Virus record (IMG/VR): IMGVR_UViG_3300047476_000521
Span: 1-64,000 of that record
DNA from: a virus
Strand: one strand, 5' to 3'
Length of the DNA: 64,000 nt
A program made the translations under genes and the position numbers. Position 1 is the stretch's first letter. Every line of letters begins with the position of its first letter. Positions 892-28,427 of this stretch are shown here, piece by piece. Under the pieces are notes generated by a model. The model worked only from the letters and a program-made list of their open reading frames with translations. It was not told where the DNA came from and did no database searches.

Positions 892-915
892 TGTTGTATC
901 CTTTCATGAAGTAAT

Positions 916-989
916 TGGCGCCCCTAGTGGGAATTGAACTCACATTGGTCGTTTTAGAGACGATTGCATTGCCATTATGCTATAGGGGC
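916..989 (-). tRNA. amber suppressor tRNA (anticodon CUA)
   Basis: 74-nt cloverleaf: acceptor GCCCCTA/TAGGGGC, D arm GCAT/ATGC, anticodon loop CTCTAAA, T loop TTCAATT, G73 plus encoded CCA. Confidence 0.85.
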
Positions 990-1052
990 GCAAACTATTT
1001 AGGCGATTTTTTCTAGTTTTACAAGCAGCTATTGTTCTAAAATATTTAGATT

Positions 1053-1120
1053 TATAAATAGAATTGTCTGTCGCGAGGTACGAACTCCACAGACTCTAGC
1101 CCTAGCAAGAGGAGCCCAGC
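1053..1120 (+). promoter_or_regulatory. late promoter TATAAATA plus conserved structured leader (copy 1)
   Basis: TATAAATA at 1053-1060; GTCTGT/ACAGAC stem, then TCTA...GGAG...CAGC-ATG; same layout as copies at 6006-6084 and 7696-7764. Confidence 0.7.
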
Positions 1121-1720
1121 ATGCATATTTATAATACGCCTTATACATATCTTATTGGTTGGACCGAACACGACAAGTGGTATTACGGTTCTCAATATGG
1201 CAAAAAAGCTAATCCTTCAAATTTATGGAAAACATATTTCACTTCTTCTAAACATGTAAAAAATTTTAGAGAAAAATATGGCGATCCGGATATAATCCAA
1301 ATAAGAAAAATATTTGAAGCATCTGAACAATGCAGAGAGTGGGAATACAAAGTTCTTCGTAGATTAAAAGCTAAACAAAAAGAAAAATTTTTAAATAAAA
1401 CAAATAGTAAAGGTATTTCCAACGAAGAAATGTTACTGCTAGGTAAACATCCTTCTCAAAATATAGATGCAAGGAAAAAAATTAGCTTATCGAATAAAGG
1501 TAGATTAGTTGGAGACAAAAATCCATCAAAAAGAGAAGATGTTCGTGAGAAATTAAGAAGACCTAAATCAGAAGAATGGAAAAGAAAAATTTCTGAATCT
1601 TCAAAAAACAGAAAAAGGCTGACATGTCCTTATTGCAAAAAACAACGTCAGCCTCAAATTTATAACAAACATCATGGAGAAAATTGTAAACTTAAACCTT
1701 CTCTGTGCGAAGAACTCTGA
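1121..1720 (+). CDS. GIY-YIG (Seg-like) free-standing endonuclease with NUMOD3-like repeats and C-terminal Zn finger
   Basis: YTYLIG...WYYGS, E(x)KVL and FLNK motifs; KSEEWKRKISES; CPYC...HHGENCK. Confidence 0.8.
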   Translation: MHIYNTPYTYLIGWTEHDKWYYGSQYGKKANPSNLWKTYFTSSKHVKNFREKYGDPDIIQIRKIFEASEQCREWEYKVLRRLKAKQKEKFLNKTNSKGISNEEMLLLGKHPSQNIDARKKISLSNKGRLVGDKNPSKREDVREKLRRPKSEEWKRKISESSKNRKRLTCPYCKKQRQPQIYNKHHGENCKLKPSLCEEL

Positions 1721-1787
1721 AAGTGGTGTTAGAAATCCACACACCAATCTCCCAGCAGTTCATCTGAATGTTATATCGCTTCGTCAT
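1692..1787 (-). CDS. small hypothetical protein (31 aa, MTKRYNIQMNCWEIG...)
   Basis: ATGA overlap with the upstream ORF stop; not in the ORF track. Confidence 0.5.
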   Translation of the reverse strand: MTKRYNIQMNCWEIGVWISNTTFRVLRTEKV

Positions 1788-1963
1788 TTTGCTTCTCCAA
1801 TTTCAAACACTGGCTTACCAACTAAGTTTCCGCCTTCTCGGAGCAACTGGACAAATGTCATTGCATCTGTGAAGGTGGGAAACTGTTTCGACTTATCAAT
1901 AATGAATCCGCTATTGTTCTTTACAGTGTAAACAACTCTGTATGGGTTTCTACGCTCAGTCAT
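1784..1963 (-). CDS. hypothetical protein
   Basis: AAGGAG SD, ORF. Confidence 0.65.
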   Translation of the reverse strand: MTERRNPYRVVYTVKNNSGFIIDKSKQFPTFTDAMTFVQLLREGGNLVGKPVFEIGEAK

Positions 1964-2024
1964 GTTTCTCTCCTTCATAGTTAGACAGTATAAAACATAC
2001 TGCCAATAAAGTCAACTATTTAGA

Positions 2025-2246
2025 TCACAGCTGGCAACTTTTAAGTAAATTAATAAGATTTGTTATCTGTGCATCTGTAATAAAATCTCTTTCTCCAATT
2101 CTATAAGACTCTAACATCGTAGCATAGTATGCAGCATTGTCGCCACGAATGAATACACCAGGCCAGTCATCATTGAATTGAACTGGACCAGTCTCCACAC
2201 GAACAGAGTCATTCTCTGTAATAATATGTCTAACGTCAGTGGTCAT
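2025..2246 (-). CDS. hypothetical protein
   Basis: ORF in operon; ETGPVQFNDDWPGVFIRGDNA segment. Confidence 0.65.
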   Translation of the reverse strand: MTTDVRHIITENDSVRVETGPVQFNDDWPGVFIRGDNAAYYATMLESYRIGERDFITDAQITNLINLLKSCQL

Positions 2247-2469
2247 GAGAAACAATCTTTCTTACTTCTAGACCTTGAGGTGGAAGTCTATCCACAAAGA
2301 ACATAGCATCTGCTTCAGTATGAAACTGTGCTATCACCTCGCCATGTCTAGCATCATATGACGTGGGATCAAGGAGCTGAAATGGCGTCACTACAACAAC
2401 TGCCCATTGCATAGGACGGCAATATACATCTACTTGCACAGTTTGAGCGATTGTCTTTTCAATGATCAT
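2236..2469 (-). CDS. hypothetical protein
   Basis: ORF coupled to the ligase stop (ATGA overlap). Confidence 0.6.
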   Translation of the reverse strand: MIIEKTIAQTVQVDVYCRPMQWAVVVVTPFQLLDPTSYDARHGEVIAQFHTEADAMFFVDRLPPQGLEVRKIVSHDH

Positions 2470-3587
2470 AGTTCCCTCTTACCTTTCCAGAATGCAACGA
2501 CTACGGGAAAACGTAGCTTTCCATCAACTGTTTTGTTCTGATATCGCACAGTAACATCAGTTCCAATCAGCTGCTCACGTTCAGCAAGAATATCTTTTAG
2601 AAATTCCTGCGTTCCACGAACACCAGAGCTCTGAGTAGTTCCATCCTTCAGTTTAATGTCAATAGACTTGGCATATCCTGCCCAGTTACCTTGACCCTCT
2701 GTGATGTCAACAATCTCAAACTCTTCATCTTCGAACTCTTTGTGCTTGATCAAAAACTTAGAACGCTTGCCTTCATACGGTGAGTCAGGAACACGGAGCA
2801 TTTGACCTTCATAACCAGCTTCGAGATAAAAAGCCAAACGCTCATTGATAGCCTGTTCATTTTCTACCATCAGAGTAGGAACAAGCTTAATTGATTCATA
2901 CCAATAATCAAAGTCTTCATCAAAGGCTTCGTCAAAGAATTTAATACGGCTGATGAAGTCGCCATCATTGATGGCGTCATATACCCAAAACTGAATCATC
3001 TGCTTGGACTCTTCGAGATCCTCGGCAGTCGGCTTTGTCTTACGAGCAAGAGAAATAATCTTTTCGAAGTCATTCTTGAGGTCATGGTTGTAAAGTTCAC
3101 CATCAAGAATGATGTCCGGAAAGATCTCAAAGAAACCCTGAAGCTCTTCAAGAATATGTGGAGCAGACAGAATAGGTTTACCCTGCCGGGACTGCATACC
3201 ATCCTTAGAAACGAGACAGCGAACACCATCTAGTTTGGGCTGCGAGTAATACGGGAACTTATTATGCTTCTTAGCGTCATACTTAGTAGCAAGCATACAC
3301 TCATGAAACTTAGCGCCGAGAGTTGAAGCAGCGTTCCAGTTGAAGTGATACTTACCCTGATGCAGTTTCTTTATATATTCAGCATCAATCTCGGCAATGA
3401 CCTGCTGCTCAACAGTTGTTGCATTAGAGCGTCCTGTATTCTTTTCAGTAGGATACTGCCAACCGGAAACAACGATCTTACCGCCATCAATCCCAGAGTG
3501 AGTGCGATACTTTTCGTGATCGTATTCCATCCACCAAACACGAGTCTTTCCCTTCGTGTCGATCTTATAAAGCTTATCGCGTTCCAT
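2466..3587 (-). CDS. ATP-dependent DNA ligase (T4 gp30-like)
   Basis: motif I QPKLDGVR, LDGELY, EGQMLR, KRSKFLIKHK, C-terminal LRFP. Confidence 0.95.
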   Translation of the reverse strand: MERDKLYKIDTKGKTRVWWMEYDHEKYRTHSGIDGGKIVVSGWQYPTEKNTGRSNATTVEQQVIAEIDAEYIKKLHQGKYHFNWNAASTLGAKFHECMLATKYDAKKHNKFPYYSQPKLDGVRCLVSKDGMQSRQGKPILSAPHILEELQGFFEIFPDIILDGELYNHDLKNDFEKIISLARKTKPTAEDLEESKQMIQFWVYDAINDGDFISRIKFFDEAFDEDFDYWYESIKLVPTLMVENEQAINERLAFYLEAGYEGQMLRVPDSPYEGKRSKFLIKHKEFEDEEFEIVDITEGQGNWAGYAKSIDIKLKDGTTQSSGVRGTQEFLKDILAEREQLIGTDVTVRYQNKTVDGKLRFPVVVAFWKGKREL

Positions 3588-3619
3588 CTCTGTGCCTCTC
3601 TTCAACTGTCATTATTATA

Positions 3620-3817
3620 TCATGAACGCTCTAGGATGTCAAGCAGTTTTTCAAGATAGTCGATCTCAGAAAGAGCTCCTTTCTGAAGTCCCTTGTAGTA
3701 CTGATCGTTAAGAGGGTTTTGCTTGGCATACAGTCTCCTGTTCTCGAGCCGAGAATACAGTTCCTCTTTGATCTGGTCCCATGCCTTTTCACGATCTTTA
3801 GAGTAAAAATCATACAT
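3620..3817 (-). CDS. hypothetical protein
   Basis: AGGAG SD, ORF. Confidence 0.6.
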   Translation of the reverse strand: MYDFYSKDREKAWDQIKEELYSRLENRRLYAKQNPLNDQYYKGLQKGALSEIDYLEKLLDILERS

Positions 3818-3930
3818 CAGTATCTCTCCTGTTTCACACGTTTACGGTCATACTTTTTCTTGTTGCGTATGACTCGCTGTTTATATTTACCGCTCTTAAG
3901 CTCTATCGCTATAGGATTATATGTTTTCAT
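3817..3930 (-). CDS. 37-aa basic peptide, ArfA-like
   Basis: MKTYNPIAIELKSGKYKQRVIRNKKKYDRKRVKQERY; AAGGA SD; own promoter; not in the ORF track. Confidence 0.55.
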   Translation of the reverse strand: MKTYNPIAIELKSGKYKQRVIRNKKKYDRKRVKQERY

Positions 3931-3957
3931 CGATTGTTCCTTTCGACCTTCAACATT

Positions 3958-4058
3958 GATTATACTGGGTTCTTGGAAAAAGTCAAGCGAATATTTTTTA
4001 AAAAAGACACTCTCTACGGTTAAGCCTTCGCTTGCCTTTTTCGCAGGATAGGGTATAC
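3958..4058. promoter_or_regulatory. divergent sigma70-like early promoters
   Basis: - strand TTGACT-N17-TATAAT; + strand TTGCCT...TATACT; AT tract between them. Confidence 0.7.
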
Positions 4059-4086
4059 TTAGAATATGGTTGATGAGGAGAAAACG

Positions 4087-4362
4087 ATGAAGACTGTTAG
4101 CGAAATCAACAAGGCCATTCTCTCGGGTAATTTCTCGCCGGACGATATCCGTTCTATTCAGCAGGCACTCAAGGCCGCTTATTCTACGATGCAGACTCGT
4201 GAGAAGTTTTCGTATCGAGTTGGTGAACAGGTAACTTTCAGTTCTCGTTCGGGAGAACAGATCGTTGGTAAGATTACTAAGATTAATCAGAAGACCATTA
4301 ATATCCGTACTAACACTGGTATGGAATGGAAGGTCTCGCCGTCGCTGCTCAAGAAGGTTTAA
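4087..4362 (+). CDS. hypothetical protein with SH3/KOW-like C-terminus
   Basis: GAGGAG SD; VGEQVTF...GKITKINQKT...WKVSPSLL. Confidence 0.7.
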   Translation: MKTVSEINKAILSGNFSPDDIRSIQQALKAAYSTMQTREKFSYRVGEQVTFSSRSGEQIVGKITKINQKTINIRTNTGMEWKVSPSLLKKV

Positions 4363-4373
4363 GGAGAACTCTA

Positions 4374-4595
4374 ATGCCGTATATCGACACTAGCGTTTAT
4401 GTTGATATTGACGAATTCCATGACGACGAGCTTATTGACGAGCTCGAGGATCGTGGATATATCGTCTCGAAACAGGCAGAAGATCCAGTCGATGTCTCGA
4501 AAATTGAAGAACTGCGTAAAGAATATATCACGTATGGATATACAGAAAAGTTTCGAGACTTTCTAGATCGCTTCTTCCACGAAACATTGGGTTGA
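4374..4595 (+). CDS. hypothetical acidic protein
   Basis: AAGGAG SD, ORF. Confidence 0.7.
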   Translation: MPYIDTSVYVDIDEFHDDELIDELEDRGYIVSKQAEDPVDVSKIEELRKEYITYGYTEKFRDFLDRFFHETLG

Positions 4596-4646
4596 CTTTT
4601 TTCAAAAACAGCGGTATAATGTATATACGATGAGAGGAGAACTGTA

Positions 4647-5453
4647 ATGGCTCGTGCCCGTAAGATTGACAACGTTATCCCGCTGCCTTCCTCTAACGAG
4701 AGCGACGATCAGATCGAGCGCCGTATCGCTGAGCGATTTGAAGTGCTGGATTTTCTGGCTCAGAATTGCATCGAGGGTCATTCTCGAGCTGCTATTATTT
4801 CTGGTTCTCCTGGCGTTGGTAAAAGCTACGGTATTATGCGTATGCTAGAAGAGTACGATCCTAGCGGTAATCAGTATACCATCGTCAAAGGTTACAGTCG
4901 TGCAACAGGAATTGTAAAGCTTCTGTATCAGTTTCGTCATCCAGGTAACATTATTGTTTTCGACGATTGCGACAGCGTTTTCTCTGACGATATTAGTCTC
5001 AATCTGCTCAAAGCGGTAGTGGATACTTGCGATCGCCGCCGTGTTTCTTGGTTGAGCGAAGGTAAGCTTCTCGACGAGGATACTGGCGAGTTGGTCCCCC
5101 GTCACTTTGATTTCGAAGGTTCAGTTATCTTCCTGACAAATCTAGATTTTGACGCCATGATCGCTCGTGGTCATAAACTCGCTCCTCATCTGGAAGCTCT
5201 GCAGAGCCGTGCGCATTACCTTGACTTGACGCTCAAGAGTGCGAAAGATAAGATCATTCGTATTCGTCAGGTTGTGCTTCAGGGACTGCTCTCGCATCTT
5301 GACCTAGATCAGCAGGTCGACGTTCTTACTTTCGTCGAAGCTTACTACGAGAATATGCGAGAGTTGTCTCTTCGTGCTGTTATTAAGTTGGGCGCTCTAC
5401 GTGCTAACAACGATAACTGGTCGAAGATCGCTCGCATTACTATGCTGAAGTGA
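4647..5453 (+). CDS. P-loop (AAA+-like) ATPase
   Basis: Walker A GSPGVGKS, Walker B IIVFDDCD, sensor VIFLTN; own promoter TTGACT...TATAAT at 4592-4620. Confidence 0.85.
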   Translation: MARARKIDNVIPLPSSNESDDQIERRIAERFEVLDFLAQNCIEGHSRAAIISGSPGVGKSYGIMRMLEEYDPSGNQYTIVKGYSRATGIVKLLYQFRHPGNIIVFDDCDSVFSDDISLNLLKAVVDTCDRRRVSWLSEGKLLDEDTGELVPRHFDFEGSVIFLTNLDFDAMIARGHKLAPHLEALQSRAHYLDLTLKSAKDKIIRIRQVVLQGLLSHLDLDQQVDVLTFVEAYYENMRELSLRAVIKLGALRANNDNWSKIARITMLK

Positions 5454-6005
5454 TTTGCATTTGCTTCCATGGCATTTACCATAAACTGGCGCTGTTACCG
5501 TTTTGCCACAATGTTCACACGTCTTTGGTTTGTAGTTAGGATTATCTGCGAAGAAACGTGCTGATCTTTTTGGTCTAGATGCTGCAGCGCCTTTTTTACC
5601 GTTATCGCTCTGTATATCTGAGCGTAGAAATGGGTGAGAGCCATCTTGTAATTGTTTGGCGATATATTGTTTGTGTAATTCTGGATTAGAAAAATTATGA
5701 ACGCCTCGTTCTATCTGATCTTGAACAGCAATTCTAGAAATGTCGCTCAATTCTTTACTGCTGAGAGATTGATGCATTCTTTTTGCTATTCTAGAAGCAG
5801 AGCCAATGTCGCCTTGATCTAGATGTATTTTAAAATGTTCTTCTATAGTAACTAATTGTAGATTGTTTATGTCATTGTTCTTGTGGTCTCCATCTATATG
5901 ATGGATCTCGTAAGAACGTCCGTGTTCATCTTTTGGGATTGGACCGTAATATTGTTCGTATATACGGCGATATGTGCGGCTGTGAGTGCGTTTATAAGTA
6001 GTCAT
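5397..6005 (-). CDS. HNH free-standing endonuclease with C-terminal Zn finger
   Basis: EIHHIDGDHKNNDINNLQLVTIEEH; CEHC...CHGSKCK. Confidence 0.85.
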   Translation of the reverse strand: MTTYKRTHSRTYRRIYEQYYGPIPKDEHGRSYEIHHIDGDHKNNDINNLQLVTIEEHFKIHLDQGDIGSASRIAKRMHQSLSSKELSDISRIAVQDQIERGVHNFSNPELHKQYIAKQLQDGSHPFLRSDIQSDNGKKGAAASRPKRSARFFADNPNYKPKTCEHCGKTVTAPVYGKCHGSKCKSLQHSNASDLRPVIVVST

Positions 6006-6084
6006 AGCTGTGTCTCCAAGGTTTTGCGTTAGACATAGAGCTCGTAGATGTTGGTAGCATCGTGACGGGCATCTTTTATTTAGT
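6006..6084 (-). promoter_or_regulatory. late promoter (CTAAATA) plus conserved structured leader (copy 2)
   Basis: GCCCGT-CAC-GATG...CATC-T-ACGAGC-TCTA-TGTCT...GGAGACA-CAGC-T-ATG. Confidence 0.7.
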
Positions 6085-6117
6085 TGACTTTACGCAGAAA
6101 CCTAATATAATATTTCT

Positions 6118-6585
6118 ATGATGAAAAGAAAAGGTGAAATGATGGGAATGAAGTGTTATTTGGTCGATGTTGATGGTACTGTTGCTAATACAGAGCATCG
6201 TATTCATTATATTACAAACGGTCACAAGGACTGGACTAACTGGCATGCGAATGCTCATAAGGACGAGCCAATTGATCAGATGGTAGAAATTCTTGATATG
6301 GCCTCTGCTGCTGGTATTAAGATTGTTCTCTGCACTGGTCGTGATGAGAAGTGCCGTGAGGATACTACTGGCTGGTTCTATGATAATGATATTCCTTTCG
6401 ATGCCCTCTACATGCGCAAGCAGGGAGATCGCCGAGATGATGATATCGTTAAGTTCGAATTGCTAGAGCAGATCTATGCCGACGGTTATGAGCCTGTTCT
6501 AGTATTCGACGATCGTGACCGTGTCGTTAAGATGTGGCGGGCCGCTGGGCTTCGTTGCTTTCAGGTAGCACCAGGAGATTTCTGA
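6118..6585 (+). CDS. HAD-family phosphatase (polynucleotide kinase 3'-phosphatase domain, PseT C-terminal-like)
   Basis: DVDGT motif I, TGR motif II, FDDR motif; true start may be 6139 or 6148. Confidence 0.85.
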   Translation: MMKRKGEMMGMKCYLVDVDGTVANTEHRIHYITNGHKDWTNWHANAHKDEPIDQMVEILDMASAAGIKIVLCTGRDEKCREDTTGWFYDNDIPFDALYMRKQGDRRDDDIVKFELLEQIYADGYEPVLVFDDRDRVVKMWRAAGLRCFQVAPGDF

Positions 6586-6767
6586 TGAGTGAGATCATGT
6601 GTAAGCCGATCCCTAATTGTTTATCGATCGAGGGAGGATCTTGGGAGTATGTTGTAGTCAATCGGCATACTAATAAGATTGTCGCTGCATTCACTAACGA
6701 TATCGATGCTGAACAATACGTCCAGCAGTGCGCTGGACCGTTCTACATTCGAGAAGTTGAAGATTGA
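6585..6767 (+). CDS. hypothetical protein
   Basis: AGGAG SD, TGATG coupling. Confidence 0.6.
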   Translation: MSEIMCKPIPNCLSIEGGSWEYVVVNRHTNKIVAAFTNDIDAEQYVQQCAGPFYIREVED

Positions 6768-6818
6768 CTTTTGTCGCATCTAGAGGTATAATACCTGAAT
6801 GAATTAAGGGAGTCAACT

Positions 6819-7238
6819 ATGCGCCTTCGTATTCGAGTTTCAAATCCGATGTATGCATACCGTCACACGTATGCTTCATATATTCAGATCCCTGAATACT
6901 ACGAATACGAAGGCGAGATTGTATCTCCCAAGCCTAAGTGGCTTTCCGATAACCAATTTATGATGGATACTGGCGAAGATGAATCCGTACTTCGTATTCT
7001 GGATAAAGACAGAATCATTTGTGGTTGGATACCTGGTAATGATAGGAAACTGTCTGCTCCTACGTCAGTTACTGTCCAATCCGGATCTTCTGGAAAGTCT
7101 TATATTGTATCTCTGGCCGATGGCGGTCTTAGTTTACGCTGCAATTGTACATCTTTTTCGTACAGGAAAACTTGCAGTCATATTAAGGAAGTAGAGGAAG
7201 CCGATGTTTACATTTGTCAAAATGCCATCGATGCATAA
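6819..7238 (+). CDS. SWIM zinc-finger protein
   Basis: YIVSL...CNCTSFSYRKTCSHIK (CxC...CxH). Confidence 0.75.
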   Translation: MRLRIRVSNPMYAYRHTYASYIQIPEYYEYEGEIVSPKPKWLSDNQFMMDTGEDESVLRILDKDRIICGWIPGNDRKLSAPTSVTVQSGSSGKSYIVSLADGGLSLRCNCTSFSYRKTCSHIKEVEEADVYICQNAIDA

Positions 7239-7695
7239 CAAGACTTTGACCTGTTTTACCGCAATGAGGGCAAGTAACATATTTACTGTGCACTTCATCG
7301 TAAACCCTCTGGAGATGATCCAATTTCGCTTTTGATCTGCTTTTACCACCTTTAACAGCGTTACGACGCTGTATTTCTGAATTCTGAAAAGGATTTCTTC
7401 CTTCAGATAGTAGTCTCTGTGCTAACTTTTTACCGAATGGATGATCGCCTCTTTCTATTCTTCTTTTGTTAGATAGACTAGCGAGTTGAGACTTATCGGC
7501 CGATAGAGAATGTTTAGAAAGTAGTAAACAAGCAGCCCAGTCTCCTTGTTCGAAATGCACGTTGTAATGTTCTTTTGGAGATAAAGCAATTAGGTTTGAA
7601 GGATTGTTGTTAGTTCTATCTCCATCGATATGATGGATATGATAACCTTGAGGAATAGGACCGAAATGTTGTTCGTAGATACGTCTATATATCAT
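7183..7695 (-). CDS. HNH free-standing endonuclease with C-terminal Zn finger
   Basis: HIHHIDGDRTNNNPSNLIALSPKEH; CPHCGK...HRWHFDKCK; paralog of 5397..6005. Confidence 0.85.
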   Translation of the reverse strand: MIYRRIYEQHFGPIPQGYHIHHIDGDRTNNNPSNLIALSPKEHYNVHFEQGDWAACLLLSKHSLSADKSQLASLSNKRRIERGDHPFGKKLAQRLLSEGRNPFQNSEIQRRNAVKGGKSRSKAKLDHLQRVYDEVHSKYVTCPHCGKTGQSLVMHRWHFDKCKHRLPLLP

Positions 7696-7764
7696 ATGCT
7701 GGCGCTCCTTATTAGCGTTAGAGTCCGTAGATATTGGAGTATCGTGACGGACAACTTATTTATA
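7696..7764 (-). promoter_or_regulatory. late promoter TATAAATA plus conserved structured leader (copy 3)
   Basis: GTCCGT-CAC-GATA...TATC-T-ACGGAC-TCTA-ACGCT...GGAGCG-C-CAGC-AT-ATG. Confidence 0.7.
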
Positions 7765-7775
7765 TGGGAAGCAGC

Positions 7776-8264
7776 ATGAATAACACACAAATATTTGCAT
7801 TCTTTATTCTACCTGCACTTATTAGTTGTGCTGTAGTCGCCTTTGCTCTGTTGTTCAACAGGCTTAACAAGCCCAAGGAGATCGACAAGCCAAAGAAGAC
7901 TGTTGGGCGAACTCTGTATAATTATGATTTGGACGAGTGGAATTATCTAGGGACAACTGAACTAACTGCAGGCGTTGGCGAAGTTAAGGATTACGGTTAT
8001 GTGTTCTTCTTTACACTAAAGTCCGACACAGATGTTCGTGATTATCATGTTCCCAATAGGTTATTCCGAGGACATGCATGGCTTGATGGCATGGCCGAGC
8101 CATGGAAAGCAGGAGAGCGTGAATATTATACGGTGATCAATAAAGCGCCATCTTCTTACCTCAAGAATTACATGAAGGAAAACTATAACTCCGAATGGTG
8201 TAGTAACACTAATTGGTGGGTTCCGATCGTTAAACAAGACCCAGGAACATATTGGGGAGCGTAA
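7776..8264 (+). CDS. hypothetical protein with N-terminal TM helix
   Basis: ORF; hydrophobic N-terminus. Confidence 0.65.
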   Translation: MNNTQIFAFFILPALISCAVVAFALLFNRLNKPKEIDKPKKTVGRTLYNYDLDEWNYLGTTELTAGVGEVKDYGYVFFFTLKSDTDVRDYHVPNRLFRGHAWLDGMAEPWKAGEREYYTVINKAPSSYLKNYMKENYNSEWCSNTNWWVPIVKQDPGTYWGA

Positions 8265-26515: not shown

Positions 26516-26706
26516 TAAAGGAACTGATCATACTGGCGCAGGTGGCTAATACAATTCCTCCTGCTGACATTATGAGAAATGACATTCCGACTTATTCATG
26601 GGAAAGGCCAACACAGCCACCGAGATATCAAGTTCCTGCTACTGGTATTTACTCGGCAGGATCTAGACCTCCTCCGATTTCGTTTGAAGAGGTTGAAGTA
26701 GAATAA
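26512..26706 (+). CDS. hypothetical protein
   Basis: coupled ORF. Confidence 0.5.
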   Translation: MIKELIILAQVANTIPPADIMRNDIPTYSWERPTQPPRYQVPATGIYSAGSRPPPISFEEVEVE

Positions 26707-26713
26707 ATAGAAT

Positions 26714-27025
26714 TGCCAAAGGTCGTTGAGAGACGAAACATAGGTTTCTTGGACGTGGGTGCGATTCCCACCGTCTCCACCATGGATACATTCAACCATA
26801 CACACCTGGTGCTAACTAGGTTGCGCAGCCGAAAAGACGTAGAGAAAGAGTCTGTTAGCGGAATGTATCTTTGATGGGGACGAACAGGTTCGACAGGATT
26901 CAGTAAGGTCGTAAGGAGACTGTAGGCATTTATAGGTGCAAACGATAACTTCGCACCATTTGAGATGGCACTAGCTGCTTAATCTCATTGGGTTGGCAAC
27001 TTCCTAGAAACAGAATAGTTGCTTT
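26714..27025 (+). ncRNA. ssrA: circularly permuted two-piece tmRNA, tag (A)ANDNFAPFEMALAA
   Basis: acceptor piece ending CGTCTCC-ACCA at 26782 precedes GGGGACG at 26876 (G3.U70 alanine identity); tag reading frame 26938-26982; outer ends approximate. Confidence 0.9.
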
Positions 27026-27287: not shown

Positions 27288-27364
27288 GGCTCCGTAGCTC
27301 AGCTGGATAGAGCAACAGACTTCTAATCTGTGGGTCGTGTGTTCGAATCGCACCGGAGTCGCCA
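27288..27364 (+). tRNA. tRNA-Arg (TCT)
   Basis: cloverleaf GGCTCCG/CGGAGTC, anticodon loop CTTCTAA, TTCGAAT, encoded CCA; promoter TTGCTT...TATAAT upstream. Confidence 0.95.
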
Positions 27365-27917: not shown

Positions 27918-28427
27918 ATGCACGTTAAAACAATCGGTAAACCCTTAAATGTATCTCTGTCAATGGCCAAAAAGGCAGCTGTTTTTTATGGAAAATATCT
28001 TGTCGGTAATGGTAAACTCTACAATAATTTGAAACTGACAATTCAATTTGAAAAAATGTCTTCTATGGAGGACGATTATGCCTACTGTGATTGGGTAGAC
28101 GATAACAATCTAAAAAGAGAATTTGTAATAGGCGTAGATAGAACTCTCAATAAAAAAGAGACCTTGCTAGCTTTAGCCCATGAGATGGTGCATCTAAAGC
28201 AATACGCCAAAGGAGAGATGAAAGACATTCATCATCCAGTCAGAATGGTCAAATGGCAAGGCGAGAGATATCTTTATGAGGAAATGGATTATTGGGAATG
28301 TCCCTGGGAAATTGAAGCGTATGGTCGTGAGAGAGGTCTATACTTCAAATTTTTGAATTATCTAAAAGATGGTGAGCCCGAATTAAAATGTCAGCCTTCG
28401 AAGCGTATAAAGATTATGTCGCCTTAA
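27918..28427 (+). CDS. HEXXH zinc metallopeptidase-like protein
   Basis: LAHEMVHLKQY...PWEIEAY. Confidence 0.75.
   Translation: MHVKTIGKPLNVSLSMAKKAAVFYGKYLVGNGKLYNNLKLTIQFEKMSSMEDDYAYCDWVDDNNLKREFVIGVDRTLNKKETLLALAHEMVHLKQYAKGEMKDIHHPVRMVKWQGERYLYEEMDYWECPWEIEAYGRERGLYFKFLNYLKDGEPELKCQPSKRIKIMSP

Follow-up and report, generated by a model that had tools for sequence, protein, structure and literature searches.

A homing endonuclease needs enough expression to spread but not so much as to harm its carrier, and phage T4 balances the expression of its endonucleases by gene-specific hairpins and operators. Here, we analyze a short structured element that precedes endonuclease genes in a 64,000-nucleotide (nt) stretch of viral DNA (IMG/VR record IMGVR_UViG_3300047476_000521, positions 1–64,000; the window in what follows), the first part of a 136,102-bp viral record with a G+C content of 38.9%, and compare it with the closest described systems. 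In T-even phages, late promoters of endonuclease genes are nested in gene-specific hairpins that hide the ribosome-binding site, and I-TevI represses its own late promoter (PMC2988022). The T4 late box is 8 bp long and begins at −13, variants at −13 and −12 are in use, and a/gC-TAAATA is the consensus in Aeh1 (PMC2988020). The PeSLs of T4-type phages combine a terminator stem-loop with an early promoter on one strand, flank ORFan genes, and mediate shuffling (PMC4122927). In cyanophage S-PM2, the ~225-nt antisense RNA CfrI lies opposite a homing endonuclease gene (PMC2984593), and in IS10 the 69-nt antisense RNA RNA-OUT is complementary to a translation-initiation region, keeps ribosomes from binding, and affects every copy (PMC5006887).

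We regard the element as the core of a ~105-bp portable control module with which free-standing homing-endonuclease cassettes begin at their 5′ end in a clade of uncultured T4-like phages. In our preferred reading, to which we assign a probability of about one half on the strength of sequence comparisons, face-to-face late promoters would make the nuclease mRNA and a ~67-nt antisense RNA over its ribosome site, much as in the RNA-IN/RNA-OUT pair of IS10. From the outer box, TAAATA with a G usually 5 nt later, the nuclease mRNA would begin at the initial base of a hairpin made of stems P1 and P2, the Shine-Dalgarno (SD) sequence lying in a further stem, P3; the inner box would start an antisense transcript usually 5 nt on, at the G opposite an invariant CAGC, which would run back across the leader. 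The antisense RNA would thus consist of an 8-bp hairpin with the anti-SD sequence as its loop, the P1-P2 hairpin, and a U-rich tail complementary to the outer promoter, and by pairing with the translation-initiation region of the nuclease mRNA it would lower nuclease synthesis. We infer that both boxes fire, that the antisense RNA ends at the U-rich tail, and that pairing is what represses.

Results

Five copies of the element in one phage genome

The original prediction had placed three copies in the window, each with a late promoter box, stems P1 to P3, and invariant UCUA and CAGC motifs ahead of an endonuclease start codon; all three were recovered with this layout, along with two more elsewhere in the record. 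A regular expression together with a covariance model, R1 (nine copies built in, 61 positions, 14 bp, with three of the five genome copies belonging to the training set), yielded exactly five strong copies in the genome (E ≤ 1e-14), the next best match having E = 0.16. We refer to the copies as c1 to c5, to the full 136,102-bp record as G000, and to loci outside it by L-numbers. The features are as follows.

1053–1060, plus strand: outer late promoter box of c1, TATAAATA, 5 nt before the first G of P1
1066–1120, plus strand: structured core of c1 (R1, E = 3e-20)
1066–1071/1089–1094, plus strand: P1 of c1, with bulge CGC at 1072–1074 and P2 (GAG/CTC) at 1075–1077/1085–1087
1095–1098, plus strand: UCUA of c1, followed by P3 with the SD sequence GAGGAG, CAGC at 1117–1120, and ATG at 1121
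1126–1133, minus strand: inner box of c1, a perfect TATAAATA written by codons 2–5 (caT ATT TAT A), then TGCAT, then GCTGG
1121–1720, plus strand: c1 endonuclease open reading frame (ORF), 199 amino acids, GIY-YIG-like (SegE type), with a C-terminal CCHC finger
6077–6083, minus strand: outer late promoter box of c2, CTAAATA, 6 nt before P1
6007–6070, minus strand: structured core of c2 (R1, E = 1.4e-14)
6070–6065/6045–6040, minus strand: P1 of c2, with one C·A mismatch; bulge CAC; P2 GATG/CATC
6039–6036, minus strand: UCUA of c2, followed by P3 (TGTCT/AGACA) at 6035–6031/6015–6011, CAGC at 6010–6007, and ATG at 6005
5993–6000, plus strand: inner box of c2, TATAAGTA, in codons 2–5; L133 and L165 use the same variant as outer box
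5397–6005, minus strand: c2 endonuclease ORF, 202 amino acids, HNH_3, with a C-terminal CCHC finger
7757–7764, minus strand: outer late promoter box of c3, TATAAATA, 4 nt before P1
7698–7752, minus strand: structured core of c3 (R1, E = 1.9e-23)
7752–7747/7728–7723, minus strand: P1 of c3; bulge CAC; P2 GATA/TATC; UCUA at 7722–7719
7701–7698, minus strand: CAGC of c3, preceded by P3 (CGCT/AGCG) and followed by ATG at 7695
7183–7695, minus strand: c3 endonuclease ORF, 170 amino acids, HNH_3, with a C-terminal CCHC finger
114893–114950, minus strand: c4 (regular expression and R1), no inner box, preceding a 198-amino-acid GIY-type protein
131994–132055, minus strand: c5 (regular expression and R1), inner box ATAAATA, preceding a 176-amino-acid HNH_3 protein (63.2 bits)

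In the three window copies, ATG follows CAGC after 0–2 nt, and 4–6 nt separate the late box from P1. The leaders of c3 and c5 are near-identical; c3 is without an inner box, its codons 2–4 being ATA TAT AGA. When sequences are folded singly, the proposed P1-P2 and P3 appear in c1, c2, c3, and c5, the fold of c4 is different, and the minus strand of the c1 core folds as the antisense counterparts of P3 and of P1/P2 (aP3 plus aP1/aP2). The long-range closure in the minimum free energy (MFE) fold of c4 was dropped as a shared feature, being absent from the other copies. Because the z-scores of the single-sequence folds are weak (−0.3 to −1.2), structural support rests on comparison between sequences and not on energy.

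Outside the genome, R1 gave 107 matches at E ≤ 0.01 in 83 sources, a figure that includes training sequences and many duplicates and reduces to 50 distinct rows; these matches, in viral contigs, come from the kind of covariance search proposed with the original prediction and extend the element to further copies before endonuclease-type genes. The viral contigs had been scanned with a degenerate pattern, which gave 81 loci, and a metagenome scan gave at least 120 loci; among the matches listed for the latter, 24 have a complementary P1, and at least 27 model matches resulted. Since the scan patterns fixed TCGYGAC, TAGAG, and the purine/pyrimidine classes of P1, the invariance of these letters is partly a matter of ascertainment. 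P1 complementarity was left free, and wobble and mismatch combinations in P1, though permitted by the patterns, are almost absent; second copies found by the model alone have quite different P1 arms. A broader pattern, CCGTCACGAN{8,20}CTCTA, was discarded as its matches were mostly due to chance, true copies among the matches listed occurring only in L013, L071, L083, and L122. Of 134 pooled matches, 125 could be parsed (9 could not), giving 59 distinct contexts, so that the family has at least 59 distinct copies. Five weak or atypical model matches (L137:3801, L159:116, L184, L185, and L143) were left out of the conservation and codon counts and of later counts.

The element is not an existing Rfam family: Rfam 15 has no match at the three window sites at gathering thresholds, nor at E ≤ 10 over positions 900–7900 on either strand. 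No prior description was found in a literature search that did not reach supplementary files or subscription papers. The DNA ligase of the genome is 40–46% identical to ligases of T4-like phages of Alphaproteobacteria. In the “phages” collection, megablast gave no match to the window phage, a blastn “distant” search with the c3 leader gave chance-level matches only (E of 3 to 9), and no isolated phage had a match to the element beyond chance.

Compensatory changes preserve the hairpins

The compensatory changes from which a structure had originally been proposed are borne out in the larger family. In P1, 351 of 354 cells are Watson-Crick pairs, spread over 13 combinations of arms, including GTCTGT/ACAGAC, GTCCGT/ACGGAC, GCCTGT/ACAGGC, GTGGTT/AACCAC, GCGGGC/GCCCGC, GATAGC/GCTATC, GTGACT/AGTCAC, GTTAGT/ACTAAC, and GTAGAT/ATCTAC. 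In the alignment fitted to the model, 89.3% of cells are paired, compared with 71.8% in shuffles (none of 500 reaches the observed value) and 28%–40% when the partners are slid, and double changes occur in 12 of the 14 pairs. RNAalifold, run on MAFFT alignments that were not fitted to the structure, recovered P1 and P2 unaided on the sense strand. In the internal loop, described initially as CRC opposite Y, 25 of 38 distinct hairpins have CAC and the other 13 have CGC; it faces a C in 26 of them and a U in 12. The SD sequence always lies within P3.

Some other features of the hairpins may be recorded here. The tip of P2 reads UUGGCG on the gene strand in some copies (c4, L013a, L167) and its complement CGCCAA in others (L193, L138, L158, and more), like an inverted tip; such an inversion would make no difference to a sense/antisense pair but would matter for a protein site on a single strand. 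Inspection of the CRC/GA loop by eye led us to reject K-turn, tRNA-like, RNase III-site, and small-ribozyme readings, because GA is missing from the opposite strand, the helices are not long enough, and there is no Rfam match. A YUNR U-turn at the start of the antisense P2 loops occurs in only 4 of 38 hairpins and was not used. A hairpin variant of the type GCCYGTCGCGAG...CTCTAG is found at L223 2441–2516 (minus), L248 2731–2812 (plus), L184 4165–4222 (plus), and L185 146–199 (plus), with (G)ATCAGCA directly after it, no P3, SD sequence, or following ATG, and model scores of 26–39 bits; it may be a related element in another context. Two copies, L150 12411–12476 (plus) and L158 1151–1218 (minus), come directly after a tRNA-like 3′ end and have neither late box nor inner box, and one of them precedes a truncated remnant ORF of 37 amino acids.

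A better fit of the fold to the antisense strand

In 45 of the 47 contexts, the antisense strand has the lower MFE; the mean is −18.1 kcal/mol for antisense folds and −13.7 kcal/mol for sense folds. As such a comparison of strands is biased by G+U content, we used z-scores and wobble counts beside it. Against dinucleotide shuffles, the z-scores are −1.93 (antisense) and −1.54 (sense), the antisense value being better in 31 of 47 contexts. Read on the antisense strand, the invariant CUA (in CUCUA) and CAG (in CAGC) become the paired CUG/UAG and there alone lengthen P3 to 8 bp, giving a hairpin with the anti-SD sequence as its loop; on the sense strand, the third CUA/CAG pair is always A·C. Over the five variable pairs of the extended P3 in 58 contexts (290 cells), we counted 224 Watson-Crick pairs, 40 A·C, 8 G·U, and 18 others, and in the viral-contig set alone the ratio of A·C to G·U is 22 to 4. 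At pair 5 of P2, there are 21 C·A as against 7 U·G, and pair 6 is Watson-Crick in 15 of 16 cases. The P2 loop, originally said to end in AA, does so in 29 of 47 contexts and not in the rest, and it does so because those A's are the U's of a longer antisense stem.

The same asymmetry is seen in alignments that were not fitted to the structure (49 of 55 distinct elements, with L184, L143, L185, L223, L169, and L323 dropped for an atypical P3). Over the same 14 pairs (P1 plus extended P3), paired cells make up 95.1% for the antisense and 84.2% for the sense orientation, and the extended P3 is part of the RNAalifold prediction for the antisense strand only. Because the non-Watson-Crick combinations on the gene strand are mostly A·C, that is, G·U on the opposite strand, the opposite strand appears to be at least as much the folded molecule. 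P1 is almost free of wobble of either kind, as expected were both strands under selection for folding.

Two predicted late promoter boxes face each other across the leader

The outer TAAATA lies 3–6 nt before P1 in 44 of the 59 distinct contexts, most often at 5 nt (30 contexts) and otherwise at 4 nt (10), 6 nt (3), or 3 nt (1). Around the predicted start, 46 of 47 contexts have T at −1 and all 47 have G at +1. Conservation continues into the gene, where positions +6 to +12 read T-ATT-TAT in 41, 42, 35, 36, 36, 38, and 38 of 47 contexts, and ends at +13; read on the opposite strand, TATTTAT matches the late box ATAAATA exactly. Codon 2 is variable, yet its third base is T in 41 of 47 genes (background 0.348, p = 1.5e-13); the Ile codon is ATT in 29 of 34 (background 0.377, p = 1.5e-8) and the Tyr codon TAT in 34 of 35. 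These codon counts show that the inner motif is selected at the nucleotide level and not at the protein level.

TAYTTA, a late-box complement and putative antisense promoter, follows CAGC at 5 nt in 30 contexts, at 6 nt in 8, and at 7–10 nt in 7, altogether 45 of 59. In L161, CAGC and the start codon are 2 nt farther apart, and in L169 and L323 the start codon precedes CAGC; all three retain CAGC-N5-TATTTA. The spacings of the outer and inner boxes mirror each other (mostly 5 nt, from the G of P1 and from CAGC, respectively), and the two boxes face each other ~65 bp apart. With a 5-nt spacer and a T4 box beginning at −13, +1 would therefore fall on the G of P1 for the sense transcript and on the G opposite CAGC for the antisense transcript. 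That unrelated nucleases all start with M-x-I-Y would follow from the complement of the inner box occupying codons 2–4. The predicted antisense RNA has a median length of 67 nt (range 62–90), and in 49 of 59 contexts at least 5 of the first 10 nt of its tail are U.

Weighing the readings

Several observations weigh against the antisense RNA. Thirteen of the 59 contexts, c3 and c4 among them, have no inner box, and in most copies it is only a 6- to 7-mer; the boxes are not significantly associated with each other (both in 27 contexts, the outer only in 11, the inner only in 5, neither in 4). The U-rich tail begins one base past the stem and contains A residues, and it is not independent evidence because the outer promoter produces it automatically. 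The conserved CRC/Y internal loop is left unexplained. Twenty-three G·U pairs are compatible with the sense strand only, so the sense strand may fold as well; the high G+U content of the antisense strand exaggerates the MFE gap, and the gap in z-scores is modest. Finally, the counts are of sequences and not of phylogenetically independent events, and the frequent ACGCU...AGCAU type could be a single evolutionary event.

A cis-regulatory leader acting on the sense strand alone is a reading that we consider rather unlikely: a 5′-terminal P1-P2 hairpin would protect the mRNA or bind a phage or host factor at CRC/Y, a weak P3 would tune ribosome access to the SD sequence, and AU-rich codons 2–4 would keep the start open. 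5′-terminal hairpins stabilize mRNA; the spacing of the outer box sets +1 at the G of P1, RNAalifold recovers P1-P2 on the sense strand, the SD sequence is always in P3, there are 6–7 U·G pairs at P2 pair 4/5 on the sense strand, and the sequence-conserved internal loop resembles a protein site. Such a leader leaves unaccounted for the exact TATTTAT with its silent third base, the pairing of the invariant CUA and CAG only via G·U on the other strand, and the 40:8 excess of A·C over G·U in P3, a stem that RNAalifold does not predict on the sense strand. As in the original prediction, the outer box would put the late mRNA start ahead of the whole motif, at P1; with conservation running to +12 and the better fold on the antisense strand, the motif is not simply a leader. 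The exact complementarity of promoter and codon motifs could alternatively reflect a mask of the T4 type on read-through transcripts, in which AUAAAUA would pair with UAUUUAU of codons 2–4 (helix P0) to form a three-way junction hiding the SD sequence and AUG, the late transcript, lacking the 5′ arm, being translated as for I-TevI, segB, and mobE. This arrangement has a documented T4 precedent (PMC2988022), and some cassettes are co-oriented with their neighbors (e.g., L167). P0, however, is composed of AU pairs only, it is predicted with at least four expected pairs in just 11 of 47 sense contexts, its two arms do not significantly co-occur, and both L140 copies keep TATTTAT with no upstream box; moreover, most cassettes are by a crude estimate antisense to their neighbors, where no sense read-through is expected, and we consider this mask very improbable.

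Two further readings shift the function away from the nuclease mRNA. The module might act at the DNA level, as a PeSL-like recombination or shuffling module or as a single-stranded DNA hairpin in double-strand-break repair or replication, the RNA folds then being incidental. Its place at the cassette boundary and its exchange between unrelated nucleases, the several copies per genome (five here, four in L157), and the Watson-Crick-only covariation of P1, which suits hairpins on both strands, are in keeping with this, and PeSLs are described as mediating modular shuffling (PMC4122927; PMC2839356). Recombination homology needs no base pairing, yet many compensatory changes keep pairing intact; the strand asymmetry and the positions of promoter box, SD sequence, and AUG suggest transcripts; and no recombinase or structure-specific partner was identified, which makes a DNA-level function improbable in our view. 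The inner box might instead be an outward late promoter feeding the displaced neighbor gene, with the folded antisense stretch as that neighbor's 5′ leader. The perfect antisense TATAAATA of c1 faces the tRNA at 989–919, the L013 cassette interrupts a host gene 31 nt from its beginning, with the 5′ end of that gene rebuilt immediately past the module, and T4 endonuclease genes are known to contain promoters that serve genes downstream of them (PMC2988022). Not all cassettes are arranged in this way, however, since the inner box of L167 points into the 3′ end of the upstream gene and at c2 and L157:6519 the neighbor owns a sigma-70-like promoter beyond the module; a U-rich tail after the hairpin would also oppose read-out, and we rate the outward promoter the least probable of these readings.

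The module moves between nuclease families

We delimited cassettes by comparing occupied with empty sites having flanks 97%–99% identical. The module occupies the outer edge of the cassette, with the boundary 5–15 nt upstream of the outer box; the proposal that the motif is an element end holds in this positional sense only. Two cassettes, L131:3744 (GIY-like, 222 amino acids) and L157:6519 (HNH, 168 amino acids), have in common 23 nt of upstream sequence, the leader, and ATGTCTAYTTATCACACA (their first 6 codons), a stretch of ~103 nt containing 2 differences, and are unrelated beyond. L131 and L157 are near-identical phages with their cassettes at different sites, each being empty at the other's site. 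From this alignment, we conclude that the 5′ module was exchanged recently from one nuclease family to another. The window phage has five copies and L157 four. That the strand-symmetric, two-promoter module is a family-wide antisense brake, portable between GIY-YIG, HNH, and nuclease-less genes, is a more tentative proposal, to which the sequences lead us to give slightly less than even odds. If so, the presence of near-identical leaders at more than one locus of a genome (c3 and c5) means that the brake could act in trans on all cognate nucleases in a copy-number-dependent way, like the multicopy inhibition of IS10.

By a crude longest-ORF rule applied to 44 cassettes, the upstream flank is oriented opposite to the cassette in 19, the same way in 7, and ambiguously in 14, with too little flank in 4; 14 of the 44 are ambiguous on each side. 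Three insertions can be described individually. In L013 (10350–11060, compared with G000/window 28388–28418), the cassette sits 31 nt inside a phage gene and leaves a 16-codon stub of the interrupted 5′ end; a second 5′ end with synonymous changes restarts the gene just past the module, and the window has the uninterrupted, empty site. The arrangement looks like a rebuilt target immune to cleavage. In L167 (3560–4260, compared with G000 90089/90090), a co-oriented cassette lies exactly between the TAA of one gene and the ATG of the next; the nuclease ORF extends 8 nt into the next gene and has its stop codon there, and the next gene loses its own SD sequence. In L157 (5960–6740, compared with L131 2840–3010), the cassette splits the sigma-70-like promoter (TTGACA...TATAGT) of the neighbor and supplies a replacement TTGACA-type promoter beyond its own late box. 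Around the five genome cassettes, no flanking direct repeats scored above shuffled controls; a 30-bp duplication was seen at L013a only.

Downstream genes and the zinc finger

All five genome copies precede ORFs of homing-endonuclease type, and the 47 distinct downstream proteins of at least 80 amino acids are all modular endonuclease-type proteins or nuclease-less relatives. Among 23 representatives searched with Pfam, HNH_3 was found in 3, GIY-YIG in 2, and NUMOD3 in 6, all above the cut-off, some proteins having NUMOD3 as their sole domain; HNH passed the cut-off in 1 protein and narrowly missed it in another, and 6 have no family at E ≤ 0.05. PHROG 314 (“homing endonuclease”) matches 6 of the 10 proteins scanned. 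In the window, the c2 and c3 proteins match HNH_3 (PF13392) with E = 9e-13 (48.1 bits) and E = 9.4e-16 (57.6 bits), above the cut-off of 24.8, and the c1 protein, whose YTY...YYG spacing was read by eye, matches SegE_GIY-YIG with E = 0.024 (15.3 bits, under the cut-off of 25) and phrog_314 with E = 2.6e-10. A type I toxin-antitoxin system was considered and rejected: there is no small hydrophobic toxin, and the downstream products are modular nucleases of 108–269 amino acids. Four other endonuclease-like ORFs of the genome have no element, and none starts with M-x-I-Y:

107298–106708, minus strand: endonuclease-like ORF without the element
75238–75819, plus strand: endonuclease-like ORF without the element
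105587–105976, plus strand: endonuclease-like ORF without the element
128380–127952, minus strand: endonuclease-like ORF without the element

Two of these four have plain TATAAATA promoters and lie inside a tRNA cluster.

That the element precedes nucleases of unrelated families (HNH_3, HNH, and GIY-YIG) thus agrees with what had been proposed, at 5 of 5 genome copies. The zinc (Zn) finger fared differently. The c1, c2, and c3 proteins do share a C-terminal T-CxxC-x-K...H-xxx-CK finger, as first described; c4 and c5 are without it (3 of 5 genome proteins have it), and a regular expression finds it in 12 of 47 distinct downstream proteins, so the expectation that matches would lie before nucleases ending in this finger failed. 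Across these proteins, the finger is a frequent module not tied to the element. Of the conserved chassis with swappable nuclease domains, the 5′ module stands (the L131/L157 swap), and the finger does not. An autoregulatory pair of Zn finger and RNA is unlikely because the finger is absent in c4 and c5 and found in only 12 of 47 proteins, and nothing supports the suggested role as an RNA cofactor.

Surroundings of the cassettes

The first 9,000 nt of the window contain many near-consensus sigma-70-like promoters on both strands (12/12 at 3642–3614; 11/12 at 4592, 3986, 6084, and 6764), and the c1–c3 cassettes run opposite to the early-type units of this region. A tRNA (Rfam, 61 bits) at 919–989 on the minus strand lies just past the c1 module, downstream of the opposite-strand TATAAATA of c1, and elsewhere in the genome a tRNA begins 9 nt after TATAAATA (G000 106185); the tRNAs of this phage may be late-transcribed and the 919–989 tRNA fed by the c1 inner box. 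The phage also encodes a permuted or alpha-type transfer-messenger RNA (88.3 and 71.3 bits) and a second tRNA (26680–27025 and 27288–27361, both on the plus strand).

Discussion

One conserved, moving module serves many unrelated nucleases. The conserved regulatory cassette of homing endonuclease genes appears to be new, and its kind, RNA-level restraint of a mobile-element nuclease, is already known. If the antisense reading is true, homing endonucleases would join IS10 and IS200 as mobile elements under cis-antisense RNA, the M-x-I-Y N terminus would be explained by a promoter written into codons 2–4, and the module would be a compact part combining a bidirectional late promoter and a terminator that is testable with the T4 late transcription machinery. 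It would also be a clean case of wobble-pair asymmetry reassigning a “leader” to the opposite strand.

Among described systems, IS10/Tn10 RNA-IN/RNA-OUT and IS200 art200/tnpA offer the likeness of a mobile element whose DNA-cutting or -joining enzyme is under a short cis-antisense RNA at its outer end. The module would resemble IS10 in its predicted pair of facing promoters, in a predicted ~67-nt antisense RNA over SD sequence and AUG, and in having several copies per genome, and the predicted RNA, as is typical of RNA-OUT, has stable stem-loops that cover SD sequence and AUG. It differs in that its boxes are T4-type late boxes rather than sigma-70 promoters, its target is a homing endonuclease rather than a transposase, its antisense RNA is a prediction, and the overlap comprises the whole ~60-nt leader with two conserved hairpins; there is no sequence or Rfam relationship.

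With the endonuclease genes of T-even phages and Aeh1 (I-TevI, I-TevII, I-TevIII, segB, and mobE), the module shares a late promoter directly upstream and RNA structure around the SD sequence, which in those genes limits expression; their hairpins are gene-specific, stable, and dependent on sequence upstream of the late start (PMC2988022). The module has the late promoter but no SD hairpin with a 5′ arm upstream of the late start: it is a family-wide two-hairpin element lying wholly downstream of the predicted start, with a weak P3 and a poorly supported P0 arm. PeSLs are likewise short composite regulatory repeats at gene-module boundaries and exchange points between unrelated genes, and an exchange point is what the module is at L131:3744/L157:6519. 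It differs from them in carrying late boxes on both strands, reaching into the coding region, covarying, and being restricted to endonuclease genes, and it lacks the terminator plus sigma-70-type early promoter, the sigma-70-like promoters of the region falling outside it (e.g., 6084–6111). CfrI is, like the predicted RNA, an antisense RNA of a T4-like phage opposite a homing endonuclease gene; CfrI links the endonuclease gene to psbA with unknown function, rather than being a conserved 5′ cassette of many endonuclease genes. The module thus shares the logic of the T-even genes, the portability of PeSLs, and the polarity of CfrI and is a member of none of these groups.

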